A stretch of 40,123 nt of DNA, from positions 1 through 40,123 of IMG/VR virus record IMGVR_UViG_3300005529_000066; one strand, given 5' to 3'. The DNA is from a virus. Shown here piece after piece: positions 1,463 to 38,716 of the stretch (position 1 is its first letter; every line of letters begins with the position of its first letter). Under the pieces are notes generated by a model. That model did not search any database, was not told the DNA's origin, and was given only the letters and a program-made list of their open reading frames with translations. The position numbers and the translations under genes are program-made.

Positions 1463-2893
1463 GTGATTACCTACCTCTCCGTTTGCAGCGGCATCGAGGC
1501 GGCCACAGCGGCATGGCATCCGCTCGGCTGGTCGCCGTTTGCGTTCGCGGAGATCGAGGCGTTTCCGTCTGCCGTGCTGTCGCACCACTACGGTAGCAAT
1601 CTCATCGGCGAGCCTCTTTCACACAACGCGCCGCCTAACCTCGGCGACATGAACGGTTTCAAGGACTGGCCTGATGCAGCTATCGATGTTCTCGTCGGAG
1701 GAACGCCCTGCCAGTCCTTCTCGGTCGCAGGACTTCGCAAAGGCTTGGCTGACCCGAGAGGCAACCTCGCCGTCGTCTATCTTGCAATCGCTGACCGCTA
1801 TCGCCCCGAGTGGATCATTTGGGAGAACGTCCCCGGCGTCTTGTCGTCGGAGGGAGGACGGGATTTTGGAGCCATTGTCGGAGGGATGGTCGAACTCGGG
1901 TATTGCCCGGCTTGGCGAGTGCTTGACGCTCAATACGTGCGAGTGGACGGATTTGGACGGGCTGTCCCTCAGCGACGACGGCGTGTGTTCGTTGTCGGAC
2001 ATCTTGGAGACTGGCGCCGTGCCGCAGCGGTACTTTTTGAGCGCGAAAGCCTGCAAGGGCATTCTGCGCCGCGCCGCCAAGCGGGGGAAGGAATTGCCCC
2101 GACAATTAGCGCGCGCCCTACAGGCGGTGGCGGACTCGGAACCGACTTCGACTGCGACGGCGGGCTGATCGCCGGAACGCTTGGGCGGCGTTCGGCAGAT
2201 CATCCGAGCGGCCTGAAGTCGGAATCGGAGTTTGTCGTTGCCGTTCCTGACATCTCGCACTGCCTCAATGCTGGCGGCATGGGCAGGCAAGATTACGAGA
2301 CCGATACCGTGATCGCGCACGCGCTGCGAGCTGACGGCTTCGACGCGAGCGAGGACGGGACGGGACGCGGCACGCCGATCGTTCCTGTAGACATCACCAA
2401 TGGCATTCTCGGCGACGGTGTTGCGGGCACTCTTGAGCACGCGCAGCACAAGAGCAATCGCGGGCTTGGAGTTCTCGCCTTCGACACGACGCAGATCACC
2501 AGCAAGACGAACCGCTGCCAGCCACAGCCGGGCGGCCCGTGCCATCCGCTCGCGGCGGGGGCACATGCGCCCGCCATCGCGCAGCCCGTCGCCGACACGA
2601 TCACTGCACATTGGGAGCGCAGCAAGGGCGCCAAGGCTGGAAACCAAGTTGGCCTACTCAATCCGATCATTACGCCCGGCTGGGCCGTGCGCCGCCTCAC
2701 CCCACTCGAATGCGAGCGCCTGCAAGGCTTCCCCGATGGCTACACCGCTGTTCCGTTTCGCGGCAAGCCTGCTGCCGATGGCCCTCGCTATAAGGCGCTC
2801 GGCAACAGCATGGCGGTCAACTGCATGCGCTGGCTAGGATGGCGGATTGAGCTCGTTTCATCGCTAACCACTACTCAAGGGAAAGAACCATGA
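1463..2893 (+). CDS. DNA (cytosine-5)-methyltransferase, 476 aa
   Basis: GTG 1463 follows GAGCAGGA. Diagnostic C5-MTase motifs are present: I (VCSGIEA), IV (GGTPCQSFSVAG), VI (ENVPGV), VIII (QRRRRVFVVG), IX (RRLTPLECERLQGFP) and X (YKALGNSMAVN). Confidence 0.95.
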   Translation: MITYLSVCSGIEAATAAWHPLGWSPFAFAEIEAFPSAVLSHHYGSNLIGEPLSHNAPPNLGDMNGFKDWPDAAIDVLVGGTPCQSFSVAGLRKGLADPRGNLAVVYLAIADRYRPEWIIWENVPGVLSSEGGRDFGAIVGGMVELGYCPAWRVLDAQYVRVDGFGRAVPQRRRRVFVVGHLGDWRRAAAVLFERESLQGHSAPRRQAGEGIAPTISARPTGGGGLGTDFDCDGGLIAGTLGRRSADHPSGLKSESEFVVAVPDISHCLNAGGMGRQDYETDTVIAHALRADGFDASEDGTGRGTPIVPVDITNGILGDGVAGTLEHAQHKSNRGLGVLAFDTTQITSKTNRCQPQPGGPCHPLAAGAHAPAIAQPVADTITAHWERSKGAKAGNQVGLLNPIITPGWAVRRLTPLECERLQGFPDGYTAVPFRGKPAADGPRYKALGNSMAVNCMRWLGWRIELVSSLTTTQGKEP

Positions 2894-3108
2894 GCGTCTT
2901 CGTCGATTACCGGCACCTTCCTGAAAAGACGCGCAATGCACTGGTCGATCTCGAAATCTTCATCGGGGAGATGGACGGCAAGACCATCGGCACTCCGACT
3001 GATTCTAATACCTTTATCGACGAAGGCACGGTAGATGCCGACGACGCTGTGAAGGCGTTCAACGTGATTGTCGCCGCCCTGACCAGTGGTCAACAAAACC
3101 ATGAATGA
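2890..3108 (+). CDS. Hypothetical acidic protein, 72 aa
   Basis: ATGA overlap with the MTase stop. Coding-like codon usage. Confidence 0.55.
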   Translation: MSVFVDYRHLPEKTRNALVDLEIFIGEMDGKTIGTPTDSNTFIDEGTVDADDAVKAFNVIVAALTSGQQNHE

Positions 3109-3316
3109 CCTTGTTGTAACCGAAGGTATCTCGGGAACATGGTTCTATCACCTGTCCCACAACGCGCCGAAGCCGCAACAGCAGAGCGCCCTTTGCGGTG
3201 CGCGCGTGATGCACACGAACATGCCGCGCGACGCTTGGGGCACCGTGACCCATATCGGCGAACGCTGGTGCAAAAAATGCGAAGCGCTAGCACAATCGGG
3301 AGAGCCCCGTGAGTGA
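3101..3316 (+). CDS. Hypothetical protein, 71 aa (alternative GTG start 3086)
   Basis: ATG 3101 overlaps the upstream stop (ATGAATGA). CKKC pair near the C-terminus. Confidence 0.5.
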   Translation: MNDLVVTEGISGTWFYHLSHNAPKPQQQSALCGARVMHTNMPRDAWGTVTHIGERWCKKCEALAQSGEPRE

Positions 3317-3623
3317 CGCAGAAATGACTGATCCGAAAACCTGTAGTCCCCAGGCATGGAGCATCGCCAGCTTGTACAGCTCTGTACTCGGCGACTCTCA
3401 AGCGCGCGGCCTGGCTGAGTACATTGATGCCGCGCTCTCCGGCCTGCGCGCCGAGAATGAGCGGCTGACGGCAGCGCTCAAGAGTGCGAGCGCGCAGTGC
3501 GGAAACGTCATCTTCAATTGCGAGCAGCGGCCCGCGGACAATGCCCGGCACCTCTCATCGTGGCGCGGCGTCAAGGAATTCTGCGACGCGACCCTAAGCA
3601 TTCATGAGCGGGAATCGAAGTGA
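3309..3623 (+). CDS. Hypothetical protein, 104 aa
   Basis: GTG 3309 overlaps the end of the upstream gene. The central region looks coiled-coil. The stop overlaps the next GTG start. Confidence 0.5.
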   Translation: MSDAEMTDPKTCSPQAWSIASLYSSVLGDSQARGLAEYIDAALSGLRAENERLTAALKSASAQCGNVIFNCEQRPADNARHLSSWRGVKEFCDATLSIHERESK

Positions 3624-4391: not shown

Positions 4392-4672
4392 CCCCCGCCG
4401 CGCTCGAGCGCGAGAAGCCGCTCGCCAAGGACAAGCTATACGTCACCGACGCCGAGCTGATCCGGCTCATCGGAGCCCCGCGCGAGAAGACCCGAAAGAT
4501 GATCAACGCCTTGGACGCTATGCCGAATAGCGGCTTCCCGAAGAAAAACAAAATGTGGGGGGACAGAAGGCATTGGCCCTCTGTCAAAGCCTACTTTGAG
4601 CGCATGGAACAGCGTAGAATGGCGTCCTCATCCAATCAGCGGGGATCCCATGGCAGGCATGCCGAAGTTTGA
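4388..4672 (+). CDS. Putative excisionase / recombination directionality factor, 94 aa
   Basis: ATGA overlap with the upstream gene. It lies immediately 5' of int and overlaps its start. DKLYVTDAELIRLIG... looks like a DNA-binding helix. The call rests on position only. Confidence 0.4.
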   Translation: MTPAALEREKPLAKDKLYVTDAELIRLIGAPREKTRKMINALDAMPNSGFPKKNKMWGDRRHWPSVKAYFERMEQRRMASSSNQRGSHGRHAEV

Positions 4673-5876
4673 GAATGCGCCGGGGCTGAAGGTGCGCGCG
4701 AGCCGCACCGGAACGTTCGTCGCCTATTGGCTGGCGCGCGCGGACTGTGTCAAGCAGGGCTACAAGATGAAGTATTTCCCGCTCTGGAAGGGTGTTGATC
4801 CGACTCCAGAGGAGCGGCTGACCGTCTCCGAGGCGTGCGAGTCCCTACAGTACGAAATGCTCGCCTGGGCCGCTGGCGGCATCGACGGCGCATCGCACTT
4901 CAATGGAAGCGTGAGCAGCCTGATCTTCTGCTACACGCACGACAAGGACTCGCCGTTCAAGAAGCTGCGCTTCAAGTCGCGCAAGAACTACGCCGAATTC
5001 ATGAAGCGGATCGAGGCCGATCACGGCGACGAGTTCATCGCAAACCTCAAGGCGCGGGACATGCTGCGCTGGCACGCGGCATGGAAAGAGCGCGGCGTGA
5101 CGATGGCGCACTCACTGATGCGCATGTTTCGCGGGCTGCTGAGCTTCGGCATGACGATCCTCGATGACGAGCACTGCACGCACCTCTCAACGGTTCTCGG
5201 CAAGATGCGGTTCGAGATGGGCAAGCCGCGCACCGAGCGGCTGACCGCCGAGATGGCGAACGCCGTCCGAGCGCTCGCACACCAGAAGGGCTTGCACTCG
5301 ATCGCGCTCGCTCAGGCGTTCCAGTTTGAGGGGATGCTACGGCAGAAAGACGTGATTGGGAGCTGGGAGCCACTGACCGAGCCTGGCCCGTCTTTCGCGA
5401 CCTACCGAGACATGAAGTGGCATCGCGGCCTGCTGTGGTCCGAGATCGATGACAACCTGATCCTTCGCCACGTCACCAGCAAGCGGCAGAAGCCGATTGA
5501 GATCGACCTGAAGCTTGCGCCTATGGTGATCGAGGAATTCGACCGCATCCGCTCCGAGCTCGGCGCGCTCCCGAAGTTCGGACCAGTCGTGGTCTACGAG
5601 AGCACCGGCCGCCCCTACTCCGAGGAATACTTCCGCCAGTTCTGGCGCGAGATCGCGGACGAGTGCGGCATCCCCAAGACCGTGCGCAATCAGGACAGCC
5701 GAGCCGGCGCAATCAGCGAGGCGACCGATGCCGGCGTTCCGCTCGAGCACATCCGCCACGCGGCGACACACTCCGACATCGCGACCACGCAACGCTACTC
5801 GCGCGGCTCAGCGGAGAAGACCGCGACCGTGCTGACGATGCGCGCGGCGCACCGGAACAAAGGGGGAAACCAGTGA
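4650..5876 (+). CDS. int: Tyrosine recombinase / phage integrase
   Basis: C-terminal catalytic region RNQDSRAGAISEATDAGVPLEHIRHAATHSDIATTQRYSR (R...HxxR...Y signature). The start is ambiguous: TTG 4596, ATG 4650 or ATG 4659. Confidence 0.9.
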   Translation: MAGMPKFENAPGLKVRASRTGTFVAYWLARADCVKQGYKMKYFPLWKGVDPTPEERLTVSEACESLQYEMLAWAAGGIDGASHFNGSVSSLIFCYTHDKDSPFKKLRFKSRKNYAEFMKRIEADHGDEFIANLKARDMLRWHAAWKERGVTMAHSLMRMFRGLLSFGMTILDDEHCTHLSTVLGKMRFEMGKPRTERLTAEMANAVRALAHQKGLHSIALAQAFQFEGMLRQKDVIGSWEPLTEPGPSFATYRDMKWHRGLLWSEIDDNLILRHVTSKRQKPIEIDLKLAPMVIEEFDRIRSELGALPKFGPVVVYESTGRPYSEEYFRQFWREIADECGIPKTVRNQDSRAGAISEATDAGVPLEHIRHAATHSDIATTQRYSRGSAEKTATVLTMRAAHRNKGGNQ

Positions 5877-15879: not shown

Positions 15880-16057
15880 CGTCTTTCTCTCCGGGTTTGA
15901 GATTCAACTTGGCGCGCAACGCACAGACCTTCACGCCGAGGTCGATCGCCTTCAGCACATCCGCCGCCTTCGTGTCCTTGTATTTGTTGCCGAGCACGTC
16001 GCGCACCTTGCGCTCAAGCAGCCGCGCGAACGTGTCCGGGGTTTTCTTCTCGGTCAC
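15860..16057 (-). CDS. Hypothetical basic protein, 65 aa
   Basis: ATGA-type overlap with the upstream gene end. Coding-like codon usage. Confidence 0.5.
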   Translation of the reverse strand: MTEKKTPDTFARLLERKVRDVLGNKYKDTKAADVLKAIDLGVKVCALRAKLNLKPGEKDDESFFG

Positions 16058-17712
16058 GGCGCAGCGCTCCCGCGGTCCAGAGCCATGTCGGCAACCAGGC
16101 CACCGCGCAGAGCGGACGAGCTTGCGGACGGCATACCCTCAAGCACATGAGTCAATGCCTGATTTTTCAGGTACTGCTGCCCGAGATCGGACAGAAGAAA
16201 CCGACCAGCGACGCCCGGTGCAAATGACCCGGCAATCGCGGCCGGAACGTCTACGGCGGCCCCATGACCAAGGGCGGCCCCGCCGGCGGCACCAAGCCCG
16301 GCGCTAATCCCGGTTAGCGCGCCGCGTGCCGCAGTTCCAGATTCCGGTAGCGGTGCGAGGATCGCGTTTCCAGCATGCGATAGGTCGGTGAAGTCGCCGC
16401 GGCCGCGCACGTATCCGCGCTTGTCCTGCCCAACGGCAGCCTGCCGCAATTTGGCCGGCGTGACGACCCCTTGCGCAACCTGCTCCCCACCGCCCGCCAT
16501 TGCGGTTTCGATCACCAGCATGTTGCGATATTGGTTGCGCACATCGCGCCACGCGCCGAGATCGGACGGGTTTGCTTTCGCAATGCTACGTTCCATCAAC
16601 CCGTCCATTGCATCTCGCACCTCGGCGAGAAACATCGACATTTCGGGGTCTTGCTTCTGTCCCCGACGCATACGCTCGATGCGTGAGCGCACCGCCTTGT
16701 AGACCTCACCATCCATCGTCCGGCTTTTGGCCATTTGGTTGAACGCCTGGTCGACGACGGCCTGTACCATCGGCTTCTTGAATGGGTCGACAAACAGGTG
16801 ATTGTATTCGTCCTGCGCCTTCAGGATGTCCTGTGCGTATTGTTGATCGATCGTCGCCTTGTTGTTGGCGGCAAGTCGATCGAACTCGCTGCCGATCCGG
16901 GTGAAGGCGCGGTCGACCACCTCCGGCGTTGCGCGGTCGGCATCCTCTCCGACTCGCTTGAGCGCCGCGCGCGTGAACTCGCTGCTAATCCGGTCAACCG
17001 CCTTCTCGCGCGCACCACCAGAGCCCGGCATTTGGCCGAGTTCGCTTTCGGCATAACGCAATGCGCGACTGCCGGTAGCCTGTCCTGCGGTCGGCTCAAT
17101 GCCTTCCGACCGCAGCGTGTCGACCAAGCCTTGACGTTCGACTGAAATCGGGTTCGGCGTTATGGTGCGCGCAGCCGCACGCGGAGCGGTGCCGCCGATG
17201 ATGCCGCCGATGATGCGCGCGTAAGGTTCGGCGTTCGTGCCTTCGAACATCTGCCCGCCGGCCTCCGAGCCAAGCGCACCAGTGACCGCCATGACCCCCT
17301 TCGTAATTGGTCCGCCAGGTCCGACATAGCTCAGTGGGTTGCCCAGAAATTCGCCTGTCGTTTCGCCAAACCGTCCCGCGCGCGTCGTCGGCTTGTGCAG
17401 ATCGCCCGTGACGTTCTTTTCAAGGATGTCGGTCGCCTGCGCCGGCGTCGGAATGTCCTTCACCATCTCGGGGTCGGCCGCGCCCTCGGCCATGGTGGAT
17501 TGACCCGTTGCGCTGAGCGTCGCGCCCATACCCTGCACGATGCCGCGCGGGATCGACTTGAAGAAGTCGCCCGCGCTTTCAGAAAACGACGGCGCTGACT
17601 TCTGCGCCTGCTGCCTCATCACGCGCGCCAGAGCGTCCTGAGCGGTCGCGCCCTCTGGGGCTTCCACTCGGAATTTCTTCCCGTCAGGGGCGCTGATATC
17701 GAAGGTCGGCAC
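16054..17712 (-). CDS. Large virion protein, 552 aa (internal/ejection-protein candidate)
   Basis: GTG 17712 lies directly after the upstream TAG. Third of three consecutive large low-complexity proteins between the tail and fibre genes, an arrangement typical of podovirus internal virion proteins. Confidence 0.5.
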   Translation of the reverse strand: MPTFDISAPDGKKFRVEAPEGATAQDALARVMRQQAQKSAPSFSESAGDFFKSIPRGIVQGMGATLSATGQSTMAEGAADPEMVKDIPTPAQATDILEKNVTGDLHKPTTRAGRFGETTGEFLGNPLSYVGPGGPITKGVMAVTGALGSEAGGQMFEGTNAEPYARIIGGIIGGTAPRAAARTITPNPISVERQGLVDTLRSEGIEPTAGQATGSRALRYAESELGQMPGSGGAREKAVDRISSEFTRAALKRVGEDADRATPEVVDRAFTRIGSEFDRLAANNKATIDQQYAQDILKAQDEYNHLFVDPFKKPMVQAVVDQAFNQMAKSRTMDGEVYKAVRSRIERMRRGQKQDPEMSMFLAEVRDAMDGLMERSIAKANPSDLGAWRDVRNQYRNMLVIETAMAGGGEQVAQGVVTPAKLRQAAVGQDKRGYVRGRGDFTDLSHAGNAILAPLPESGTAARGALTGISAGLGAAGGAALGHGAAVDVPAAIAGSFAPGVAGRFLLSDLGQQYLKNQALTHVLEGMPSASSSALRGGLVADMALDRGSAAP

Positions 17713-21054: not shown

Positions 21055-21401
21055 GGCACCCCCAAAACCTGCTCGAGCGCAACATGCTCGGCCGCGTGCG
21101 CGTCCATCCACAGGAGCCACGATGCGGCGTTATCGAGATCAACCACGGACAGGTCGATCCCCGAAACTCCGGTAAGGTTGCGCAGCGTGTTGTGGATTTC
21201 CTGGTGCGAATTGAGCCACGCCGTTTGCTGCGCCGGCTTGTCGCTCCACGACTGCAGCGCATAGTCCGGAATGAAGGTCGGCGGGGTCAGGTTCAGACCG
21301 ATCTGCACGAACTGCAAATGCTCGCGGTAGTGCTCGATCAGCCAAATCCCGAATCCGTTCGGATCGTCGGGTAGGACCACGTTATGAAAGAAGATCGGCA
21401 T
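21051..21401 (-). CDS. Hypothetical protein, 116 aa
   Basis: ATG 21401 overlaps the upstream stop (TGATG). The N-terminal part of track ORF 21051..21620 overlaps the upstream gene out of frame. Confidence 0.55.
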   Translation of the reverse strand: MPIFFHNVVLPDDPNGFGIWLIEHYREHLQFVQIGLNLTPPTFIPDYALQSWSDKPAQQTAWLNSHQEIHNTLRNLTGVSGIDLSVVDLDNAASWLLWMDAHAAEHVALEQVLGVP

Positions 21402-23152
21402 CAGCGCGCCCCCGTCGAAACCATGGGAGCCGAGTCCTCGTACTCCACCACGACCGCATTGATCGTGTAGCCGAACAGCGACCCCGAGAGCGTCGCCCCA
21501 AGGGTGATCCCGGACGCCTTCGCGTCCTGCCGCTGCCACAGAAATCCCACGCCAACGAACGTAACCGGATTGTTGCTGTTGTTGAGCCACGCCACCACAG
21601 AGCCGACGTTGTTCGTCCACTGGATCGGGTTGGACACGGAATATTGCGCCTGCTGCGATCCGTTCTCGCTATCGGCTGTCAGCGTCACATTGCCCTGGCT
21701 CGCCGACGACTGCGCCACGCCGATGCGCTGCGCGCGCTTTTGCTGATGCGGGTTGCCGTTCGATGAAAGTGCGGTGCGCAGCAGAAACGAAATGGCTGTC
21801 GTGGTGGACTGGATCAGCTGCGTCACGTCAGATCCCGACGATCCAAACGTCTCATAGACGCCGCCGACGATTGCCGAGCAGATCGCGCGCAGCCCGTTGC
21901 CTTGGCTCGTGACGAACCACTTTTCGTTCTGAAACACCATCATGATCGACCGCTCGCCCTGCACCGGGTCGATATAGCGGGCAAGAAGCAGATAGCAGCG
22001 AATGTTGTTGATGTCGTTCAGGGCGGCCTGCAACGGCTGGGAGAAGTCCGTCGCCTGAAAAATTCCGTCCATCTTGTCGCTGATCTTCTGCACCGACGCG
22101 CCGAAGATCGCGTACACCCCGACAGTGTTCGCGAACAGCACAAGGCGATTGTACGACGCGATCGACTGCGGAAACGTCGTGCCCTGATCCGAAGACAGGG
22201 TGATGATGGTGAACAGCGTCGTCGAGCCGGATACTGCGATAGTGCCGATCTGCTTGATCGAGGCATCGCCGAAGATGAACAGGTAGTTGTTGAGCGCGCG
22301 CAAAGCTGTGATCGAGTGCACGAGATCGGCATCCGAAAGTGTCGTCTGTCCAGAGGCGTTGCCCGCGCTCGAATCATCGAACCCGCCGGTTCCGGTCCAG
22401 AACAGAGCGCGCCCGGCAGCGAGCCACACGCGACCCTGAAACACCGCAATCGTCGTGGGGGAGATCGAAAGGATTGGCCACACCTTGCCCGTCGCGGTCG
22501 CTCCTGAACCGCCGGACACGGGGCTGATCGTCACCGTGATCGTGTCGCCCGCGTGATAGCCGGACCCCGCGTTAGTGAGGACGATTCCGGTGACGACGCC
22601 ACCAACCACCGTTACGGTACCGGCCGCGCCAGACCCTGATCCGCCGCTGAAGCCGACCGTCGCGCCGCTCGAATAGCCAGACCCGCCGGCCGTGATCGTG
22701 AAGTTGGGCGATAGACCGCCCGGCTTCACAAACACCGTACCGTCCCATGTCGAATATCCCGCAGTAGGGTCCGCGATCAGGATGCGCGACGACTGCCATT
22801 GCGTCATATCCGGGTTGGTGAACGTGCCGGCGAGCGCGAATTTAACCTGCGCACCATTCGAGAGGTTCACCTGATAGGCCGCACCCGACTGGCAGAACTC
22901 GACGACATAATCCACGCCGCCATAATTCGCGTAGAACTTCTTCGTCACGATCTCGCCGGTGAGCGTGGTGAGTGCGGCAATCGGAGCCGGCATGATCTGC
23001 AGCCGGTTCTTTGAGATCGGTTGCAGGTTTTCGAGCCACGCCGCCGCCTTGGACGGCAGGTCGTACCGCGAGCCTTGCGTGTCCATCGTCTCGATCTCGT
23101 TGAAGACGATGTATTTTTTCTGCGGGATTTGTTGTTCTTGCGGGGCCGGCAT
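21401..23152 (-). CDS. Large tail protein, ~583 aa (tail tubular/nozzle candidate)
   Basis: ATG 23152 overlaps the upstream stop (TGATG); alternative GTG 23155. Contains the NAGSGY...TITVTI module shared with two neighbouring genes. Called from size and position. Confidence 0.5.
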   Translation of the reverse strand: MPAPQEQQIPQKKYIVFNEIETMDTQGSRYDLPSKAAAWLENLQPISKNRLQIMPAPIAALTTLTGEIVTKKFYANYGGVDYVVEFCQSGAAYQVNLSNGAQVKFALAGTFTNPDMTQWQSSRILIADPTAGYSTWDGTVFVKPGGLSPNFTITAGGSGYSSGATVGFSGGSGSGAAGTVTVVGGVVTGIVLTNAGSGYHAGDTITVTISPVSGGSGATATGKVWPILSISPTTIAVFQGRVWLAAGRALFWTGTGGFDDSSAGNASGQTTLSDADLVHSITALRALNNYLFIFGDASIKQIGTIAVSGSTTLFTIITLSSDQGTTFPQSIASYNRLVLFANTVGVYAIFGASVQKISDKMDGIFQATDFSQPLQAALNDINNIRCYLLLARYIDPVQGERSIMMVFQNEKWFVTSQGNGLRAICSAIVGGVYETFGSSGSDVTQLIQSTTTAISFLLRTALSSNGNPHQQKRAQRIGVAQSSASQGNVTLTADSENGSQQAQYSVSNPIQWTNNVGSVVAWLNNSNNPVTFVGVGFLWQRQDAKASGITLGATLSGSLFGYTINAVVVEYEDSAPMVSTGAR

Positions 23153-24054
23153 CACATCCTCGCGAACCGGCGTCGCCAGTTATTGTACACGCTCATCACG
23201 CGCGTGCTCTGCTTCGTGGCGGTGATTTCGGTCAGCCGCTCGCGATATGCCTTCTTGAAGAACTCGGCCTTGCCGAGCTCCTGCAGCTTCAACACCAGCA
23301 GATGGCACGCCCACCACTGCACGGCGTCGCTCACCGGATCGAGTATTTGCAAATCAACGTCCGTCTGGTTGACCAGCGGATTCGGCGTCGTGATCGCCTC
23401 GATGTCGAGCCCGTATGGCTGATCGGGGACGGGATAGAGATAGATCTGCGCCATCTCCCAAAAAACCGTCCACACGCCGGGGTATCGGAATTGCGACGTG
23501 TTGGCGCGGCAGAACGCCTGATACGGCCCCCACGGCATCCAATCCGCGGTCCAGCGCTCGACGCCCCAGATCGGCGAGATCGCCTTGATGTCGATGACGT
23601 TCACCATAGCGCTCGCCGTTCCGCTCGCGCCGGTGCCCGCGCTGTCGGTAATGACTACGTTCGGGGTCGAAACGTACCCGAGCCCCCAATTGATCATGTT
23701 GAACGCCGTGATGACGCCGTTCGTCACCACGGCCGACGCCGTTGCCTGCGTTCCGCCGGCAGGGGGCGCGTCGATCGTGACCGTCGGGCTGACGTAGTGC
23801 GCGCCGCCGGCCCCGAGCGTGATGCCCATCACGCCGCCGGTGAGCGGGTAAGTCTCCTGATTGGAGATCGTCGATCCGCCGTACACGTTCGGAGACGTGT
23901 AGGTCGAATAGAGGCGACGAACGCAGTGAGTATCGAGAGCGACGCGCTTGCGGCCAGCGTTGACCGCGTTCGTCATCTCCTGCAGCGTCCAATCGACGTT
24001 AGCGAGATCGTGCAGAAGCTCCTGGCACTGCAGGATGTAGTCGGACAGCTGCAC
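23152..24054 (-). CDS. Virion protein, 300 aa (head-tail adaptor / tail tubular A candidate)
   Basis: GTG 24054. Helical N-terminus MQLSDYILQCQELLHDLANVDWTLQEM. Contains the GLGYVSTPNVVI module. Confidence 0.5.
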   Translation of the reverse strand: MQLSDYILQCQELLHDLANVDWTLQEMTNAVNAGRKRVALDTHCVRRLYSTYTSPNVYGGSTISNQETYPLTGGVMGITLGAGGAHYVSPTVTIDAPPAGGTQATASAVVTNGVITAFNMINWGLGYVSTPNVVITDSAGTGASGTASAMVNVIDIKAISPIWGVERWTADWMPWGPYQAFCRANTSQFRYPGVWTVFWEMAQIYLYPVPDQPYGLDIEAITTPNPLVNQTDVDLQILDPVSDAVQWWACHLLVLKLQELGKAEFFKKAYRERLTEITATKQSTRVMSVYNNWRRRFARM

Positions 24055-26720: not shown

Positions 26721-27218
26721 TTACGCCGCGCGCTTCCCGCGCCGGATCTCGGTGATGACGTTGAAAGCTTCGTTGCGCGCGGCACCTGCCGGGTCCTCGA
26801 TGAGGTTCGGCAGCGTCGGGAAAGTCCATGTCGCGGTCGGACCGTCGGCGGGCGGTGAGGGCGGCTTGCGCGCCTGCCACAGATCGCGGGCGGCCTCATA
26901 GTCCGTGAGGCCGTAGGTCGTCATCACGGTCTCGACTTCCTTCAGCTCTGCCTCGCTGAGGCCCAGGCTCGCGCGCTGCTCCTCGAGCTTGCGCAGCGTC
27001 GCCTGCTTCTGCTCCTCGAGCTTGCGCTCCTCGTCCTTCGCCTTCATCTCCTCACGCAGATCGTCGATGTCCTGGCTCGGGAAGCGGCGCGACGGGTCGA
27101 CCTTCTTCACCGCCTTCAGGAAGGTCGATCGCGTATCGGCATTGGCCGCGAGCTTCATCGCGAGCTCGGCCAGATCATCGCGCACGTCCGGCGCCATGTT
27201 GTCGATCATGCGCGGCAT
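26721..27218 (-). CDS. Scaffolding protein candidate, 165 aa
   Basis: Highly charged coiled-coil centre (DDLREEMKAKDEERKLEEQKQATLRKLEEQRASL). Lies directly upstream of the MCP. Confidence 0.6.
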   Translation of the reverse strand: MPRMIDNMAPDVRDDLAELAMKLAANADTRSTFLKAVKKVDPSRRFPSQDIDDLREEMKAKDEERKLEEQKQATLRKLEEQRASLGLSEAELKEVETVMTTYGLTDYEAARDLWQARKPPSPPADGPTATWTFPTLPNLIEDPAGAARNEAFNVITEIRRGKRAA

Positions 27219-27427
27219 CAGAGCGGCTCCCCTTTGCGTGCGAAGTAGCTGGCCGTTCCGACCACTCCCGCGCGCGTGTAGCCGCGGCGGCTTCCTGGGC
27301 TGCGGTCGAGCTGCAGGCCGTTCAGGCCGGGATTGCTGGGCGGGTTCGCGTAATGCGACGCCCGCTTGGATTCCTTGGTGCCCTTGCCGCCGATGCGGCC
27401 GGCGCGGATTTTCGGACAGCCGAGCAT
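27218..27427 (-). CDS. Small basic disordered protein, 69 aa
   Basis: TGATG overlaps at both ends. K/R/G-rich. Confidence 0.5.
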   Translation of the reverse strand: MLGCPKIRAGRIGGKGTKESKRASHYANPPSNPGLNGLQLDRSPGSRRGYTRAGVVGTASYFARKGEPL

Positions 27428-27630
27428 CAGATTGGCTTGCCCTTCTGCGCGGTCGGGGACTTCTCCAGCGCCATCGACGGGTTCTGCGTCGCGCGCATCT
27501 TCGCTGAGGAGGAGAAGCCGCCGAACTGCGGGTAGCTCGGGATGTTCTTGAAGGCGCCGTTCACGTCCTTGCGCTCGCCGATCGAGCCGGCCTTGACCTT
27601 CGGGCGGAACATGTTGCCGTTCGTCGCCAT
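27427..27630 (-). CDS. Small basic protein, 67 aa
   Basis: RBS AAGGAG upstream of ATG 27630. Confidence 0.5.
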   Translation of the reverse strand: MATNGNMFRPKVKAGSIGERKDVNGAFKNIPSYPQFGGFSSSAKMRATQNPSMALEKSPTAQKGKPI

Positions 27631-27639
27631 GATGGCTCC

Positions 27640-28059
27640 TTACGCTGCTGCCAGTGCTGAGGGATCGGGGGGCGGACCGCCTGCGGCGACCACGCCGGGC
27701 GGCGGCGCGGACGCCATCGGGCCGCCGGTGTTGGCCGAGTGGGCGAGCTGCTGAACAGCGGCTGGAACGAGCGATTGGCGCGTCTCCTGCCCGAACTCCG
27801 CGGTCAGCGAGGAGAGCGCGCGCATCACGCCCTTGTATTGCTTCGAACCAATCTCGTAGGCGCTGAGCGCCTTGTGCAGCGCGGGGATGACAGCCTTCAC
27901 CAGCGCGTCGGCCGCGGCCTTGTTGCCGGCACCGTCACCGGGCGACATCGCGGGGCTTGATCCGGGACCGCTCGGCCCGCCCGCCATGTTGCCGGGCAAC
28001 GCTGGCTTGGGAGGCATAGCCCCCCCTAGGGTAATCGGCGCTGAAGGCGGCAGCGGCAT
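27640..28059 (-). CDS. Pro/Gly-rich protein with helical core, 139 aa
   Basis: ATG 28059 was chosen because the track start at 28098 lies inside the promoter -10 region. First gene downstream of promoter copy 2. Confidence 0.55.
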   Translation of the reverse strand: MPLPPSAPITLGGAMPPKPALPGNMAGGPSGPGSSPAMSPGDGAGNKAAADALVKAVIPALHKALSAYEIGSKQYKGVMRALSSLTAEFGQETRQSLVPAAVQQLAHSANTGGPMASAPPPGVVAAGGPPPDPSALAAA

Positions 28060-28081: not shown

Positions 28082-28129
28082 GCCGAATTGATATTCACCT
28101 TTAAGAATGAAGGTCAATGCACTGATCAG
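28082..28129 (-). promoter_or_regulatory. Late promoter module, copy 2
   Basis: The minus strand reads CTGATCAGTGCATTGACC-N18-TATCAA-TTCGGC. The -35 is at 28112-28117 and the -10 at 28088-28093. It sits immediately after the terminator. Confidence 0.6.
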
Positions 28130-28160
28130 AAAATGAAAACCCCCGCCGGGACGACGGGGG
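28130..28160 (-). terminator. Intrinsic terminator
   Basis: Minus strand CCCCCG-UCGUCCCGG-CGGGGG (6-bp GC stem, 9-nt loop), followed by UUUUCAUUUU. Confidence 0.75.
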
Positions 28161-28245
28161 AGGGCGACCGTGAACGGGGGTTTCCTACACACTCCACCCG
28201 GCCGACGACGCAAGCAGGGCAGAGAAAGCTTTGTCGGTCAGCGCC

Positions 28246-28290
28246 TTAGCGCTTGTGCCGACGCTTGCCGCGACGATGACGACGCGCCAT
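28246..28290 (-). CDS. 14-codon Arg/His/Lys-rich micro-ORF (MARRHRRGKRRHKR)
   Basis: AAAGGAGGG RBS lies 5 nt upstream of ATG 28290; TAA at 28246-28248. It sits between its own promoter and terminator. The ~200-nt transcript could instead act as an sRNA. Confidence 0.4.
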   Translation of the reverse strand: MARRHRRGKRRHKR

Positions 28291-28339
28291 GATGCCCTCC
28301 TTTGGTTGCCCGTCTTTGCGGGTGGGATGGACTTCGCAC

Positions 28340-28387
28340 TCCGATGATAAATCGGTTGAGCGATCAATTACAATGCACTGATCACTA
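28340..28387 (-). promoter_or_regulatory. Late promoter module, copy 3
   Basis: The minus strand reads GTGATCAGTGCATTGTAA-N18-TATCAT. The -35 is at 28368-28373 and the -10 at 28344-28349. It overlaps the portal stop codon. Confidence 0.5.
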
Positions 28388-30094
28388 AGCCGCTTTCTCC
28401 TTCTTGCCGCGCTGCTCCGGCACCTGACCGGCAGCGCGCGCCGCCTGCAGCGCCTTCATCCGCGCGCGAAGCGCGTGGATCATGTTGTCGGCGTTCGGCG
28501 GGTTCATCATGCGGATGAACATCTCCTGATCGATCGCCTGTGCCTTCAAGAGCGCGCCGGCCAGTTCCTTCGACTCGTCGGCAAACAGCGGCGAGTGCGA
28601 GTGGCCGGCAATCCGCATCTTCCAGCCGTCCGGCAGCTGCGCGAGCAAGAACTCCTGCCCCATGTCGGACTTCAGCTTCGTGTCGTCGTTCTTCGCCTTC
28701 AGCTTCATCCCGATGTCGCCGAGCTTCACCAGCGACTGCTCTAGCCCGACGCCGACTTTGCGGATGCGCGACGATCCGGTGGTCGCTAGTTGCTTCGCGT
28801 GTCCGCGCCCGCGCACCCCGGATTCGCCCTTGCCGGTGACAGTTTCCGTCAGGCCCGACGCCTCGAGGAAAATCTGGCCGATCTGATTGAACTCGGCGAA
28901 CAGGTCTTCCGGCATCTTCGGCGCTAGCGTGTCCACCTTCGCCTGCGTGTTCATTGGTTCGATCACCCACGAGCCCGGACCGCCGAGCGCCGACGCCTTC
29001 TCGTCGGCGAGACCCATGAAGCCCGCGAACACCTTCGCGGGGTCAACCTGCCGCTCCAGAATGTCGGCGATCTGGTCAAGCCGCTCGTTCGACCAGCGCT
29101 GCAGCGGTATCAGCCGCTCGATGTGCGCCTCGCCCCAGAAATATTCCGGCAGCGGGTACGGCGTGATCGGAACGAACGGATGCTCATCGGGGAGGAACAG
29201 GTTGGAGTGTGACCCCCATTTCCCGGCGATTTTGTCCGGAACGTCCTTCGCCATCTTATCGACCGTCTCGCGCGAGTCCGCGATCACAATCCCCGGCTCG
29301 ACCATCACAAACGTCGCGTAGTCCTCCGCGATGTCGTCCCATATCCACACCTCGGTGAACTCCGCGCCGGGCGCATCGCTCATCGGCTCGTAGGTGGGCT
29401 TGGGCTCGTAGTCGAGCGGCACCGACCCCACGACCGGGCCGGACAGGTTCGCGCCGCCGGTCTGCGAAATCTCCATCATATGCGCCAGCACCGGCGGGTA
29501 GTCGCTGGTCTTTGGCCCATGCACGAGACTGAGCTTCGGCAGCAAGTCCTTCTGGCCGGCGCGCACCAGGCGCAACACCGTGTTGTCCCAGTCGAGCGTA
29601 TAGCGATGGGCGAACGCCTCTTGGCTGTCGATGTCGGGCTCCGACTCGTCGAACACGCCGAACGACGACGGCAACACCGTGCGGCCGAAAAGCTCATCGC
29701 GCTCGCTGTTCCATCCGAGCTTGAGGAACATCGTATCGTAGACGAGCGACCAAGGTAGGGCGTTGCCGTAGGCGGTGCCAAGACCGCTGTCGCGGAACGT
29801 GTCGTTCCATTCCTCCTCGGCGGCGAGCGTCTGCTTGATCACCGCCTCGTCCGAGTTGCGCGGTGCCGAGATCGAGTACCGCGCGTGATCCTCGGCAAAC
29901 AGGAACGACGCAACGAGATCGGTGTGCGCGTACAGTCGATTGTAGCGAACCGTCTCTTGGCCGTAGGTGCCGTAGAGAAAGTAGCGCTTGCGCCGGTCGT
30001 AGATTTTCTTGCGGTCCTCATTGGACTGCATGCAAACGTCGGCGACCCACTTCACCTTTTCGTCGCGCTTCTTCGGATCACGGGGGATGATCAT
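28385..30094 (-). CDS. Portal protein, 569 aa
   Basis: Size and position: downstream of terL and upstream of scaffold/MCP. ATGA overlap with the upstream gene. No named motif verified. Confidence 0.7.
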   Translation of the reverse strand: MIIPRDPKKRDEKVKWVADVCMQSNEDRKKIYDRRKRYFLYGTYGQETVRYNRLYAHTDLVASFLFAEDHARYSISAPRNSDEAVIKQTLAAEEEWNDTFRDSGLGTAYGNALPWSLVYDTMFLKLGWNSERDELFGRTVLPSSFGVFDESEPDIDSQEAFAHRYTLDWDNTVLRLVRAGQKDLLPKLSLVHGPKTSDYPPVLAHMMEISQTGGANLSGPVVGSVPLDYEPKPTYEPMSDAPGAEFTEVWIWDDIAEDYATFVMVEPGIVIADSRETVDKMAKDVPDKIAGKWGSHSNLFLPDEHPFVPITPYPLPEYFWGEAHIERLIPLQRWSNERLDQIADILERQVDPAKVFAGFMGLADEKASALGGPGSWVIEPMNTQAKVDTLAPKMPEDLFAEFNQIGQIFLEASGLTETVTGKGESGVRGRGHAKQLATTGSSRIRKVGVGLEQSLVKLGDIGMKLKAKNDDTKLKSDMGQEFLLAQLPDGWKMRIAGHSHSPLFADESKELAGALLKAQAIDQEMFIRMMNPPNADNMIHALRARMKALQAARAAGQVPEQRGKKEKAA

Positions 30095-37443: not shown

Positions 37444-37773
37444 ATGCCTTACCACGATCTCCTCAACGCCGACGGCTCGGTCAACGCCGCCGAATACGAC
37501 AAAATCCTCGAAAACCGCGTCACCCATGAGGTGAACCTGCGCCGCTGCAACGAGGCGCGCATCCACGCGCCGCACCATGTTCCGCTCGGCTGCGTCGCGG
37601 TGTTCTACGCGATGATGGTCGACCAGATGCGGCTCCCGGAACTGCCGGCCGCCGAGATCGATCGCATCCGCCGCCAGCAGACCGTGGCGCTCAATGACTG
37701 GGTCGGCGCCATGTCGGTCGCTGCCGCGAAGCAGCGGCGCGCCATGCTGCGGGTGGAGCGCAAGGCGTCATGA
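37444..37773 (+). CDS. Hypothetical early protein, 109 aa
   Basis: First ORF downstream of the early-right promoter. Coding-like codon usage. Confidence 0.6.
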   Translation: MPYHDLLNADGSVNAAEYDKILENRVTHEVNLRRCNEARIHAPHHVPLGCVAVFYAMMVDQMRLPELPAAEIDRIRRQQTVALNDWVGAMSVAAAKQRRAMLRVERKAS

Positions 37774-37946
37774 ACACTCGCACCGAGGCCGAGATGATCT
37801 ACTTCGAAGCGCACAACATGCGCAAGGAAGACGCGATCAGCCTGATCGAGGCTCGGCTCAAGCATCTGTTCGTCAACGGCCAGAAGTCAGGGATCGAGGA
37901 AGCCGCGCAGAGCATTCGTGCGGTCGGCGAACGGCAGGTGGCGTGA
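37770..37946 (+). CDS. Hypothetical protein, 58 aa (MNTRTEAEMIYFEAHNMRKEDAISLIEARLKHLFVNGQKSGIEEAAQSIRAVGERQVA)
   Basis: ATGA overlap upstream and TGATG overlap downstream. Below the track threshold. Confidence 0.5.
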   Translation: MNTRTEAEMIYFEAHNMRKEDAISLIEARLKHLFVNGQKSGIEEAAQSIRAVGERQVA

Positions 37947-38716
37947 TGAGTGATCTTCTGCAACGCCTTTCGGCGCCATTCGATCCTGACCGCGTGTCAT
38001 GGCGCGTCGGGCCGACCAACGGCAACAAGACGAAGGGAATGGCCCTCGCCTACATCGACGCCCGCGACGTGATGGCGCGGCTTGATGAAGCCTGCGGCGT
38101 TGGCGGCTGGCAATGCTCCTATCCCCACGCCAACGGAAAGACTGTCTGCAGCATCGGGATCAAGATCGGCGACGAATGGATCTGGAAAGCCGATGGCGCT
38201 GGCGATACCGACATGGAAGCCGAGAAAGGCGCGCTCAGCGACGCATTCAAGCGCGCTGCCGTCCGTTGGTCTATCGGCCGCTATTTGTACGACATGCCAT
38301 CACCCTGGGTCGAGATCGAGCAGCACGGCAAGTCGTATTCCATCAAGGACGGCGAATTAGTGAAGCTCGCGCGGCTCCTCAGTCACGCGGCGCCGGTCGA
38401 GATCAAGCGGCCGAATCCCCACGTCACCAAGCCGGCTGACATTGTCCCGGATGTCGAATACGACGACAACGGCCAGCCGGTTGACAATATCCCCTCAGGC
38501 GACCCGAGCATTGAACGGTTGCCGAAAGCAAAAGCTCGCGAGGATTTCGCGTCGGCACAGAACGAACTCCGGTCAACCGTCACCATCAAGCAGCTCGAGG
38601 ACTGGGGCGCGCGCAACGCGAACCGCGTCGAAACCTTCCCGGCTGATTGGGCTGCAATCCTGCGCGGCATCTACATCGAGCATCGCGACAGCCTGCGCAA
38701 CGGGAAGGCAGCATGA
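37946..38716 (+). CDS. Rad52/Sak-type single-strand annealing protein, 256 aa
   Basis: LSAPFDPDRVSWRVGP...ALAYIDARDVMARLDE...GWQ...EKGALSDAFKRAAVRWSIGRYLY is the signature of the Rad52/22 family. ATG 37946 was chosen; the upstream track extension is out-of-frame overlap. Confidence 0.9.
   Translation: MSDLLQRLSAPFDPDRVSWRVGPTNGNKTKGMALAYIDARDVMARLDEACGVGGWQCSYPHANGKTVCSIGIKIGDEWIWKADGAGDTDMEAEKGALSDAFKRAAVRWSIGRYLYDMPSPWVEIEQHGKSYSIKDGELVKLARLLSHAAPVEIKRPNPHVTKPADIVPDVEYDDNGQPVDNIPSGDPSIERLPKAKAREDFASAQNELRSTVTIKQLEDWGARNANRVETFPADWAAILRGIYIEHRDSLRNGKAA

Follow-up and report, generated by a model that had tools for sequence, protein, structure and literature searches.

A conserved micro-gene for a polycationic peptide in the virion structural module of uncultivated podovirus-like phages

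We analyzed a short minus-strand unit located between the portal gene and the head genes of a metagenome-assembled phage (IMG/VR record IMGVR_UViG_3300005529_000066, all 40,123 nt of which are referred to here as the window) and found that its 14-codon open reading frame (ORF) is a real protein-coding gene, new in that no annotation, family model or paper describes it. The encoded peptide, MARRHRRGKRRHKR, has a mass of 1.9 kDa and contains nine Arg/Lys and two His residues, no acidic residues and no hydrophobic ones beyond Met1 and Ala2. The micro-gene represents a family located among the virion structural genes of a large group of uncultivated, podovirus-like phages. By analogy, we place the micro-peptide in the class of viral polycationic nucleic-acid-binding peptides, functional membership being yet to be proven. 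As for its role, we rank first, tentatively, a translated and selected peptide that would act as a polyanion binder in head morphogenesis, with the packaged genome or the acidic capsid interior as its target.

Conservation of the micro-ORF was followed in three sets of relatives. The first comprises 18 IMG/VR loci fetched by their portal protein, i.e., blind to the peptide. Wherever the sequence of a locus reaches far enough downstream, the ORF is present and preceded by an AGGAGG-type Shine-Dalgarno (SD) sequence, at portal identities of 51-78%. The closest relative (L001, 78% portal identity) encodes MARRHKRGRRRHKR, five lineages with portal identities of 51-54% share the peptide MARRRRHRRGRR, and the further variants of this set are MARRHRRGRRR, MARRGRRHRRGRR and MARRRRHRRRR. 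Since the peptides stay near-constant across portal identities down to 51%, the micro-peptide is better conserved than the portal protein. In one locus (L002, 4588-4623) ATA stands in place of the start codon of the micro-ORF, possibly through mutation or a sequencing error, or else as a non-canonical start.

The second set was obtained with a degenerate DNA pattern, the back-translation of the portal-set peptides plus GGAG, and is ascertained by peptide sequence; only the portal and capsid sets are unbiased. In viral contigs the pattern retrieved 64 stretches, every one of which (64/64) is an ORF of 10-17 aa terminating no more than a few codons from the pattern. In 596 Gb of bacterial and archaeal genomes (185,579 species representatives) it retrieved 90 stretches with no convincing member among them; almost all lie inside long or out-of-frame ORFs, and they serve as the negative control. 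At this sampling, the family is found in phage contigs and not in prophages. No prophage copy of the window phage was found by the micro-gene pattern in the 185,579 species-representative genomes, and from the absence of a convincing bacterial match it follows that no host can be assigned.

The third set was ascertained by capsid-protein alignment, again blind to the peptide, and yielded at least 596 relatives, of which 80 were kept. Here we screened the 4.5 kb upstream of the capsid gene for an SD-preceded ORF of 8-25 aa containing ≥55% R/K/H, and found at least one in 37 of the 57 loci with enough upstream sequence, mostly at 1.2-2.9 kb from the capsid gene, compared to 0/57 on the opposite strand. 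A looser re-scan of the 20 "negatives," with no SD required, revealed candidates of 14-38 aa at the same place in many of them, each built of a short N-terminal extension and a polycationic tail (e.g., MNIKAEIAAREAAIRSRRGRRRHRRR and MSLMWTKLFANADERRRRHRRGRRR). Extensions of 7-20 aa before the polycationic tail were observed in L184, L185-L187, L189, L191, L192 and L194, at 1.7-3.2 kb upstream of the capsid gene; some are hydrophobic/aromatic (MSLMWTKLFANADE-RRRRHRRGRRR), others helical and charged (MNIKAEIAAREAAI-RSRRGRRRHRRR). These extended variants may be anchor-plus-tail forms.

The nucleotide variation within the family is that of a coding sequence. Across 53 distinct ORF sequences, the entropy at codon positions 1, 2 and 3 amounts to 0.35, 0.11 and 1.40 bits, respectively. 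The Arg codons CGT, CGC, CGA, CGG, AGG and AGA are used interchangeably at the same positions with the core peptide essentially invariant, and conservation extends to the non-Arg residues Ala2, His and Gly. In the portal-ascertained set (12 sequences), the pooled proportion of synonymous differences (pS) is 0.65 vs. 0.11 for the non-synonymous ones (pN). With such a period-3 pattern, neither a conserved DNA site nor a base-pairing RNA can be what selection acts on. By the evidence of these alignments, the micro-gene is very probably translated and is under purifying selection on the peptide, specifically on its cationic charge. A preliminary description of the unit had offered two alternatives, a translated micro-protein and a small RNA (sRNA) with an incidental ORF. 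The first is strongly supported by the conserved ORF, SD and start codon, the saturated third positions, the duplicated copies and the exchange of Arg for Lys with GC content (both described below); the second is rejected by the conserved peptide, the free third positions, the gene arrays and the Arg/Lys exchange. The same description had advised caution over the CGT-rich codon choice. The bias itself is real, CGT accounting for 4/7 Arg codons of the micro-ORF vs. 5% in the large genes of the window (Fisher p = 6e-4). Yet, it is common to the whole family (34% of Arg codons vs. 10% in the portal, capsid and terminase genes of the same loci), and therefore is no argument against translation. 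It may rather be a property of the coding sequence, e.g., a spread of isoacceptor demand or avoidance of G+C-rich structure.

What is kept across the family is above all positive charge. The 59 peptides have a median length of 13 aa and a median net charge of +8 (range +6 to +11), and D/E occurs in 2/59. The K/(K+R) ratio is 0.52 in low-GC relatives (GC 0.42-0.50) vs. 0.24 at GC ≥0.57 (Spearman -0.64); Lys-rich peptides of low-GC relatives include MARKARKGRKARK and MRKSHKKARKSRR. In turn, several lineages carry tandem arrays of micro-genes, most copies with their own SD: three in L034, at least four in L019, three to five in L042 and five in L065. We noted arrays at 4987-5640 in L019, at about 3100-3320 on the minus strand in L042 and at 3466-3764 in L065, as well as in L034, L024, L026 and L031; array members are, e.g., MARRRRRHRRGRR, MARRRRRGRRGRR, MARKRSKALKMTRRAKRIRARKHKRH and MARRGRRRGRH, and some arrays are followed by further basic ORFs of 30-55 aa. 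Two Lys/Arg micro-ORFs with good SDs were also observed, unannotated, in GenBank record MW202753.1 (L170), at 4759-4800 and 4879-4920, encoding MRKAYKKTRKTRR and MARAKRKGRKARK. They sit between the portal gene and a homolog of the 139-aa gene that opens the head operon of the window phage, and the record carries minus-strand "hypothetical protein" coding sequences (4740-4877 and 4874-5038) across this interval. Taken together, the charge density, the Arg/Lys exchange and the copy amplification point to a bulk polycation rather than a sequence-specific recognition motif.

In the window, the micro-gene is embedded in a compact expression unit consisting of the following features:

28385-30094, minus strand: portal gene (569 aa), directly upstream, its stop codon (28385) abutting the promoter motif; weak SU10_portal match and annotated portal homologs.
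28344-28384, minus strand: predicted late-type promoter of the micro-gene, with the motif TGATCAGTGCA (28384-28374), -35 TTGTAA (28373-28368), an 18-nt spacer and -10 TATCAT (28349-28344).
28309-28322, minus strand: small hairpin CCCG-CAAAGA-CGGG in the 5' untranslated region, with GGGCAAC directly after it.
28291-28308, minus strand: A/C-rich, U-poor leader GGGCAACCAAAGGAGGGCATC with the SD AAGGAGG (28302-28296) and a gap of 5 nt from GGAGG to ATG.
28246-28290, minus strand: micro-gene for MARRHRRGKRRHKR, 14 codons plus stop (ATG 28290, TAA 28246).
28197-28220, minus strand: degenerate remnant of the ancestral terminator hairpin of the clade, GCCCTGCTTGCGTCGTCGGCCGGG, from the alignment with L001.
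28130-28160, minus strand: intrinsic terminator, stem CCCCCGTCG/CGGCGGGGG (28160-28140, 9 bp, 8 of them G-C), loop TCC, then TTTTCATTTT.
28088-28128, minus strand: second promoter copy, TGATCAGTGCA, -35 TTGACC, 18 nt, -10 TATCAA.
27640-28059, minus strand: downstream partner gene (139 aa, Pro/Gly/Met-rich ends, ATG 28059), the first gene of the head operon.

The promoter, SD, 14-codon ORF, terminator and second promoter copy had all been proposed before, at these positions and on this strand, and we found each of them in place. That the unit is more than a chance arrangement is confirmed by its conservation as a whole: the order promoter, 5' hairpin, A/C-rich leader with SD, ORF, terminator, promoter is kept in the clade of the window phage. 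When relatives were compared, the ORF and its ribosome-binding site were present wherever they were looked for, and the terminator throughout the closer clade. The micro-gene promoter is recovered as a sigma-70-like site by promoter scan and its core is kept in L001. The second copy is the predicted promoter that drives the head-gene operon. In the last 22 nt of the leader, A makes up 35% and U 9%, and all portal-ascertained relatives carry AGGAGG, GGAGG or GAGGAG at equal spacing. The preliminary description had pictured an insulated transcript of about 200 nt. Its own promoter and terminator stand, but the unit is not fully insulated, since the stretch from the portal stop codon (28385) to the micro-gene promoter contains no terminator that would halt transcripts reading through from the portal gene. 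By this layout, the micro-ORF has a promoter of its own and would at the same time be the final cistron of the packaging operon, whose read-through transcripts would cover the ORF and stop at the terminator of the unit.

Exact copies of the 14-mer TGATCAGTGCATTG were located in the window at 28384-28371, 28128-28115 and 14383-14370, and copies with 1-2 mismatches at 33489-33476 and 2947-2934, all five on the minus strand. These copies precede blocks of minus-strand genes, including the packaging and head operons. The repeated sequence differs by lineage (TGATCAGTGCATTG in the window, CAGTCAATTGACA in L001, ATGTGTCATAAT in L014 and CACTATTCGC in L005) and flanks the unit at constant distances. 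Relatives carry repeats of a different sequence in the corresponding places, which hints at a late-promoter element specific to each lineage and perhaps serving as an activator site ahead of a sigma-70-type core. The five promoter-like repeats of the window read (T/G)GA(T/C)CAGTGCATTG, followed in the best copies by -35 TTGACC, 18 nt and -10 TATCAA(T). GATC lies within 4/5 of the copies, and the phage encodes a DNA methyltransferase.

The terminator at 28160-28130, which begins 85 nt past the stop codon, is the strongest terminator-like site within 26-31 kb of the window. Of 55 distinct units, about 40 have a terminator in the corresponding position, 1-45 nt past the stop in relatives, and about 15, mostly distant ones, have none that could be detected; thus, the terminator is a clade feature, and the ORF with its SD is the invariant core. 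One large subclade shares the terminator CCCCGGC-TTGCG..GC-GGCCGGGG, with compensatory changes in 7/12 pairs. The window phage has swapped this terminator for another and retains just the degenerate remnant at 28220-28197, inside a ~45-nt insertion that is specific to it and absent from L001. A conserved apex (T/A)TGCG-N3-6-GC on a co-varying stem was observed in L001, L007, L008, L010-L013, L021, L025, L033, L040, L068, L069 and L073, and is kept across lineages at only ~50% portal identity, which is unusual for an intrinsic terminator. This apex could mark a binding or processing site.

As for other RNA structure, L001 has the same 5' stem with a different loop, and many relatives carry hairpins of other sequence at this position; compared with shuffles, the 50-nt segments show a slight gain in stability (mean z -0.68, the sequences not being independent). 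The 211-nt unit folds moderately better than shuffles (z = -2.9), and the long-range pairing behind this value falls in the ~45-nt insertion that L001 lacks. In the predicted fold, the SD region (28295-28300) pairs with CUCUGCCCU at 28216-28224 (minus strand), a possible anti-SD. An anti-SD/attenuator pairing was rejected, as the spacer segment involved belongs to the window-specific insertion and is not conserved; the pairing is probably fortuitous. Rfam 15 gave no family, the only hit being a sub-threshold match (21 bits, E = 0.79) to a plant-virus pseudoknot on the opposite strand.

Synteny by tblastn places the micro-gene between the portal gene and the head operon even at 25-30% portal identity. 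In L001, L008 and L076, which have extra or homing-endonuclease-like ORFs inserted behind the portal gene, the micro-gene stays with the Pro/Gly/Met-rich downstream protein, and in some distant relatives the downstream gene starts 4-10 nt past the micro-ORF stop. In the L019 lineage, the array follows a homolog of the 584-aa ORF found at 21401-23155 of the window, among genes with structural-protein matches. Judged by its neighbors, the micro-gene belongs to the virion module in every case examined. In L002-L004, an opposite-strand ORF, a homing-endonuclease-like insertion, was observed between the micro-gene terminator and the head operon. The downstream 139-aa protein was considered as an acidic partner and rejected, its isoelectric point (pI) being 9.2. 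Next to it on the minus strand, two small basic proteins of 67 aa (27427-27630) and 69 aa (27218-27427), with pI of 10.5 and 11.0, are weak paralogs (30% identity, E = 6e-4) with the common motif PK(V/I)(K/R)AG.IG...N.PS.P. The 67-aa protein is conserved throughout the family, and the 69-aa copy was seen only in the window and L001.

On the plus strand of the window lie genes for an integrase, a DNA methyltransferase and an Erf-type recombinase, and on the minus strand a long structural block that encodes the large terminase, portal, major head protein, Ig-like structural proteins and a "DNA ejection protein." Genes outside the unit that are referred to here are:

1463-2893, plus strand: DNA methyltransferase.
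4596-5876, plus strand: integrase.
16054-17712, minus strand: "DNA ejection protein."
37694-38716, plus strand: Erf-like annealing protein.

Since an integrase is present, the phage is likely temperate; it is podovirus-like. Pfam and PHROGs recognized, among the neighbor proteins, only the terminase, a weak portal match, the major head protein and Ig-like structural domains; the downstream 139-aa, 67-aa, 69-aa and 165-aa proteins received no Pfam or PHROG assignment, and most proteins of the phage are without one. The window has no tRNA genes, and PHROGs revealed no recognizable lysis cassette or spanin in it. Among 50,697 deposited phage records there was no relative at the DNA level, the sole match being a spurious one of 38 nt in Gordonia phages, and INPHARED holds no close relative, which leaves no isolate, virion proteome or structure to draw on. 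At the protein level, portal and capsid searches identified two metagenomic "Bacteriophage sp." genomes (32% portal and 52-54% capsid identity); the other portal and capsid matches among deposited phages are very distant.

The micro-ORF was not called by the gene caller on the source contig (metagenome assembly SRR5581483), and pipelines miss such a micro-gene because the peptide is below the minimum length of gene callers. In a collection of 15 billion proteins, only variants of at least 30 aa are present, named "hypothetical protein." Relatives of 26-55 aa and the doubled window peptide gave no match at E ≤ 10 to Pfam/NCBIfam, including the bTHX and bS22 models, with the 14-aa peptide itself too short for these tools and bias filters penalizing this composition. 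No paper on the peptide strings or on phage-encoded polyarginine micro-genes was found in the literature searched.

The unit appears to be equipped for high late expression, with a copy of the structural-gene promoter, a 5' hairpin, an unstructured leader, a consensus SD and the terminator of the clade; the late timing is read from the repeated promoter motif of the structural operons. We propose that the micro-peptide would be made late and in bulk as a stoichiometric polycation, would bind phage DNA and/or the acidic capsid interior, and would end inside the head, screening the DNA charge as a phage-encoded "mini-protamine," its dosage being set by promoter strength and tandem gene duplication. 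The genome or capsid interior is ranked first as target because of the gene position, the dosage behavior, the Arg/Lys exchange and the anchor-plus-tail variants. Of the properties that characterize J-like and protamine-like peptides, very small size, high basicity, location among structural genes with predicted late expression, and selection on charge over exact sequence are found here. Among the functions suggested in the preliminary description, a DNA-charge-neutralizing peptide is the one that fits best, and it is kept here as a conditional proposal. The more far-reaching claim is that a large, uncultivated group of tailed dsDNA phages from soil and freshwater encodes its own "protamine." Its genes, stand-alone and only 10-17 codons long, would be the smallest conserved ones on record for phages, and their products would be packaged together with the genome or line the capsid interior. 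This is possible, and we hold it with more doubt than the choice of target.

Several points weigh against this proposal. To our knowledge, tailed phages do not encode a DNA-binding counter-ion peptide. Motor-packaging tailed phages are thought to be without cationic arms or partners and to use Mg2+ and polyamines, and in them the genome charge exceeds the internal charge of the capsid (PMC7096446). The route by which a free peptide would enter the head is not accounted for, nor are the conserved His and Gly (RRHRRG) by charge alone. A cytoplasmic polycation would also bind ribosomes, RNA, host DNA and, after lysis, lipopolysaccharide (LPS), so other targets would fit the composition equally, and the gene position is suggestive without being proof. 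In addition, the pattern set was ascertained by the peptide, and phylogenetic relatedness among the sequences makes the p-values optimistic.

One such target would be the host. A late polycation directed at the envelope or at host polyanions, permeabilizing the outer membrane/LPS at lysis in the manner of cationic peptides and the phage phiKT gp28 "disruptin" or compacting the nucleoid and not forming part of the virion, would equally well explain a pure polycation with interchangeable Arg and Lys, high late expression and copy amplification, all of which suit bulk action on any polyanion; with no lysis cassette or spanin recognized by PHROGs in the window, a lysis function is possibly missing. 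We nevertheless consider it unlikely. Lacking a signal sequence and any hydrophobic or amphipathic part, the peptide would have no access to the envelope until the inner membrane and the wall had been breached, and over deep divergence the gene is tied to the portal-capsid interval or other structural genes, not to putative lysis genes. Moreover, host shut-off functions usually belong to early genes rather than to genes under a structural-gene promoter. An RNA target, in turn, would make the peptide an arginine-rich motif (ARM) regulator that binds the 5' hairpin or the terminator apex and thereby affects how late mRNAs terminate, how stable they are or how they are translated. RNA hairpins can be bound by Arg-rich stretches of such a length, a hairpin recurs just upstream of the SD, the apex TGCG..GC is conserved on a co-varying stem in one large subclade, and the conserved His and Gly could reflect specific recognition. 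However, in low-GC relatives up to half of the Arg positions are taken by Lys, a substitution usually poorly tolerated in ARM-RNA recognition; no loop sequence is shared by the 5' hairpins (CAAAGA, GTCACA, CTCGA, CGTTT and others); and many members, that of the window included, have no terminator or a different one. A length of 10-17 aa also leaves no part for contact with NusA or RNA polymerase, and tandem arrays of divergent copies suit dosage better. The lambda-N/Tat-like motif considered in the preliminary description is therefore disfavored, with Lys tolerated, no conserved target loop and no effector part, and we regard this reading as improbable.

A ribosome-associated micro-protein, an analog of eL41, bTHX and bS22 that inserts in rRNA and biases translation toward late phage messages, would agree with the existence of phage-encoded small ribosomal proteins such as bS21. 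Size and composition are like those of eL41 and bTHX, and the Thermus Thx motif, presumably RRTRRGK, set beside RRHRRGK here, provides a lead. Yet, the 26-55 aa relatives match no Pfam/NCBIfam model at the threshold given above, the gene sits in the head module, and a copy number of 1 to at least 5 is odd for a stoichiometric ribosome ligand, which makes this reading still less probable than an RNA-binding regulator. Least probable of all is a cis-acting element with an incidental or instrumental peptide, be it an Arg-sensing attenuator, an upstream ORF coupled to the head gene, or an sRNA. A run of Arg codons followed by a terminator does look like a classical attenuator, coupling may occur in those distant relatives in which the next gene starts 4-10 nt past the stop without a good SD, and the 211-nt unit folds better than its shuffles. 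But the drift of synonymous sites around a fixed peptide, including Ala2, His and Gly, largely refutes such an element through the codon-position pattern; the terminator is followed by a promoter in the clade of the window phage, making read-through control unnecessary; the 1-45 nt between stop and terminator in relatives leave no room for an antiterminator; multi-gene arrays and Lys-rich versions would be senseless for Arg sensing; and there is no Rfam match.

Whatever its function, the family provides a clean and deeply conserved test case for functional micro-proteins of about 12 residues, and the unit a compact phage expression cassette of promoter, 5' hairpin, leader and terminator. A pure Arg/Lys peptide would be cut up by trypsin and hence be undetectable in ordinary virion proteomics. 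If the proposal of a DNA-screening head peptide is true, the virion would have built-in counter-ions instead of Mg2+ and polyamines, contradicting the usual view of charge screening in tailed phages. The copy number and charge of the micro-genes could also serve as a genetic handle for studies of packaging pressure, capsid stability and ejection. As a head component, the peptide would imply that motor-packaging phages do not depend only on inorganic and polyamine counter-ions (cf. PMC7096446).

Compared with known systems, the family shares features with several and coincides with none. The his, trp and pheA leaders likewise combine an ORF of such size rich in one amino acid, a strong SD and an intrinsic terminator, but the micro-gene unit has no alternative antiterminator, a promoter and no regulated operon after the terminator, and a conserved peptide with Lys-rich and multicopy versions. 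The ARMs of lambda N, P22 N and HIV Tat-Rev are also short, virus-encoded Arg-rich stretches near RNA hairpins; they are, however, parts of larger proteins with effector regions (in lambda-N-type antiterminators, about 100 aa in total, with regions binding NusA and RNA polymerase), recognize one conserved hairpin and act as early regulators. Unlike lambda N, the micro-peptide has no conserved target loop that we could find, admits free Lys substitution, is multicopy and lies behind a late structural promoter. The phage phiKT gp28 "disruptin" (56 aa, amphipathic, encoded in a lysis cassette) is a phage cationic peptide that acts by charge on a polyanionic structure; the micro-peptides differ in having no amphipathic or hydrophobic face and in being located in the head module.

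Closer parallels come from proteins that are packaged with genomes. The T4 internal proteins IPI, IPII and IPIII are basic, late and present in hundreds of copies in the head with the DNA, yet they are folded proteins of 8-20 kDa with a capsid-targeting sequence cut by the prohead protease, non-homologous and far less charge-dense. Adenovirus mu/VII, baculovirus P6.9 and protamines are Arg/His-rich polycations that condense dsDNA inside a capsid, and mature adenovirus mu (pX), at about 19 aa, is very similar in composition to the micro-peptide; these are eukaryotic-virus, precursor-cut or phosphorylated, non-homologous proteins, in contrast to a stand-alone gene with its own promoter, SD and terminator. 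Protein J of phiX174/G4, of ~25-40 aa, is highly basic, needed in bulk and found in the virion with the genome (PMC7096446). It has no sequence similarity to the micro-peptide and serves ssDNA packaged during synthesis into a T=1 capsid with no portal or terminase, whereas the window phage has a terminase, a portal and an HK97-type head gene set, and most micro-peptides are anchorless and 10-17 aa long. What J has in common with the family is its plan, a basic DNA-binding part joined to a short hydrophobic capsid anchor, which is echoed by the N-terminally extended variants.

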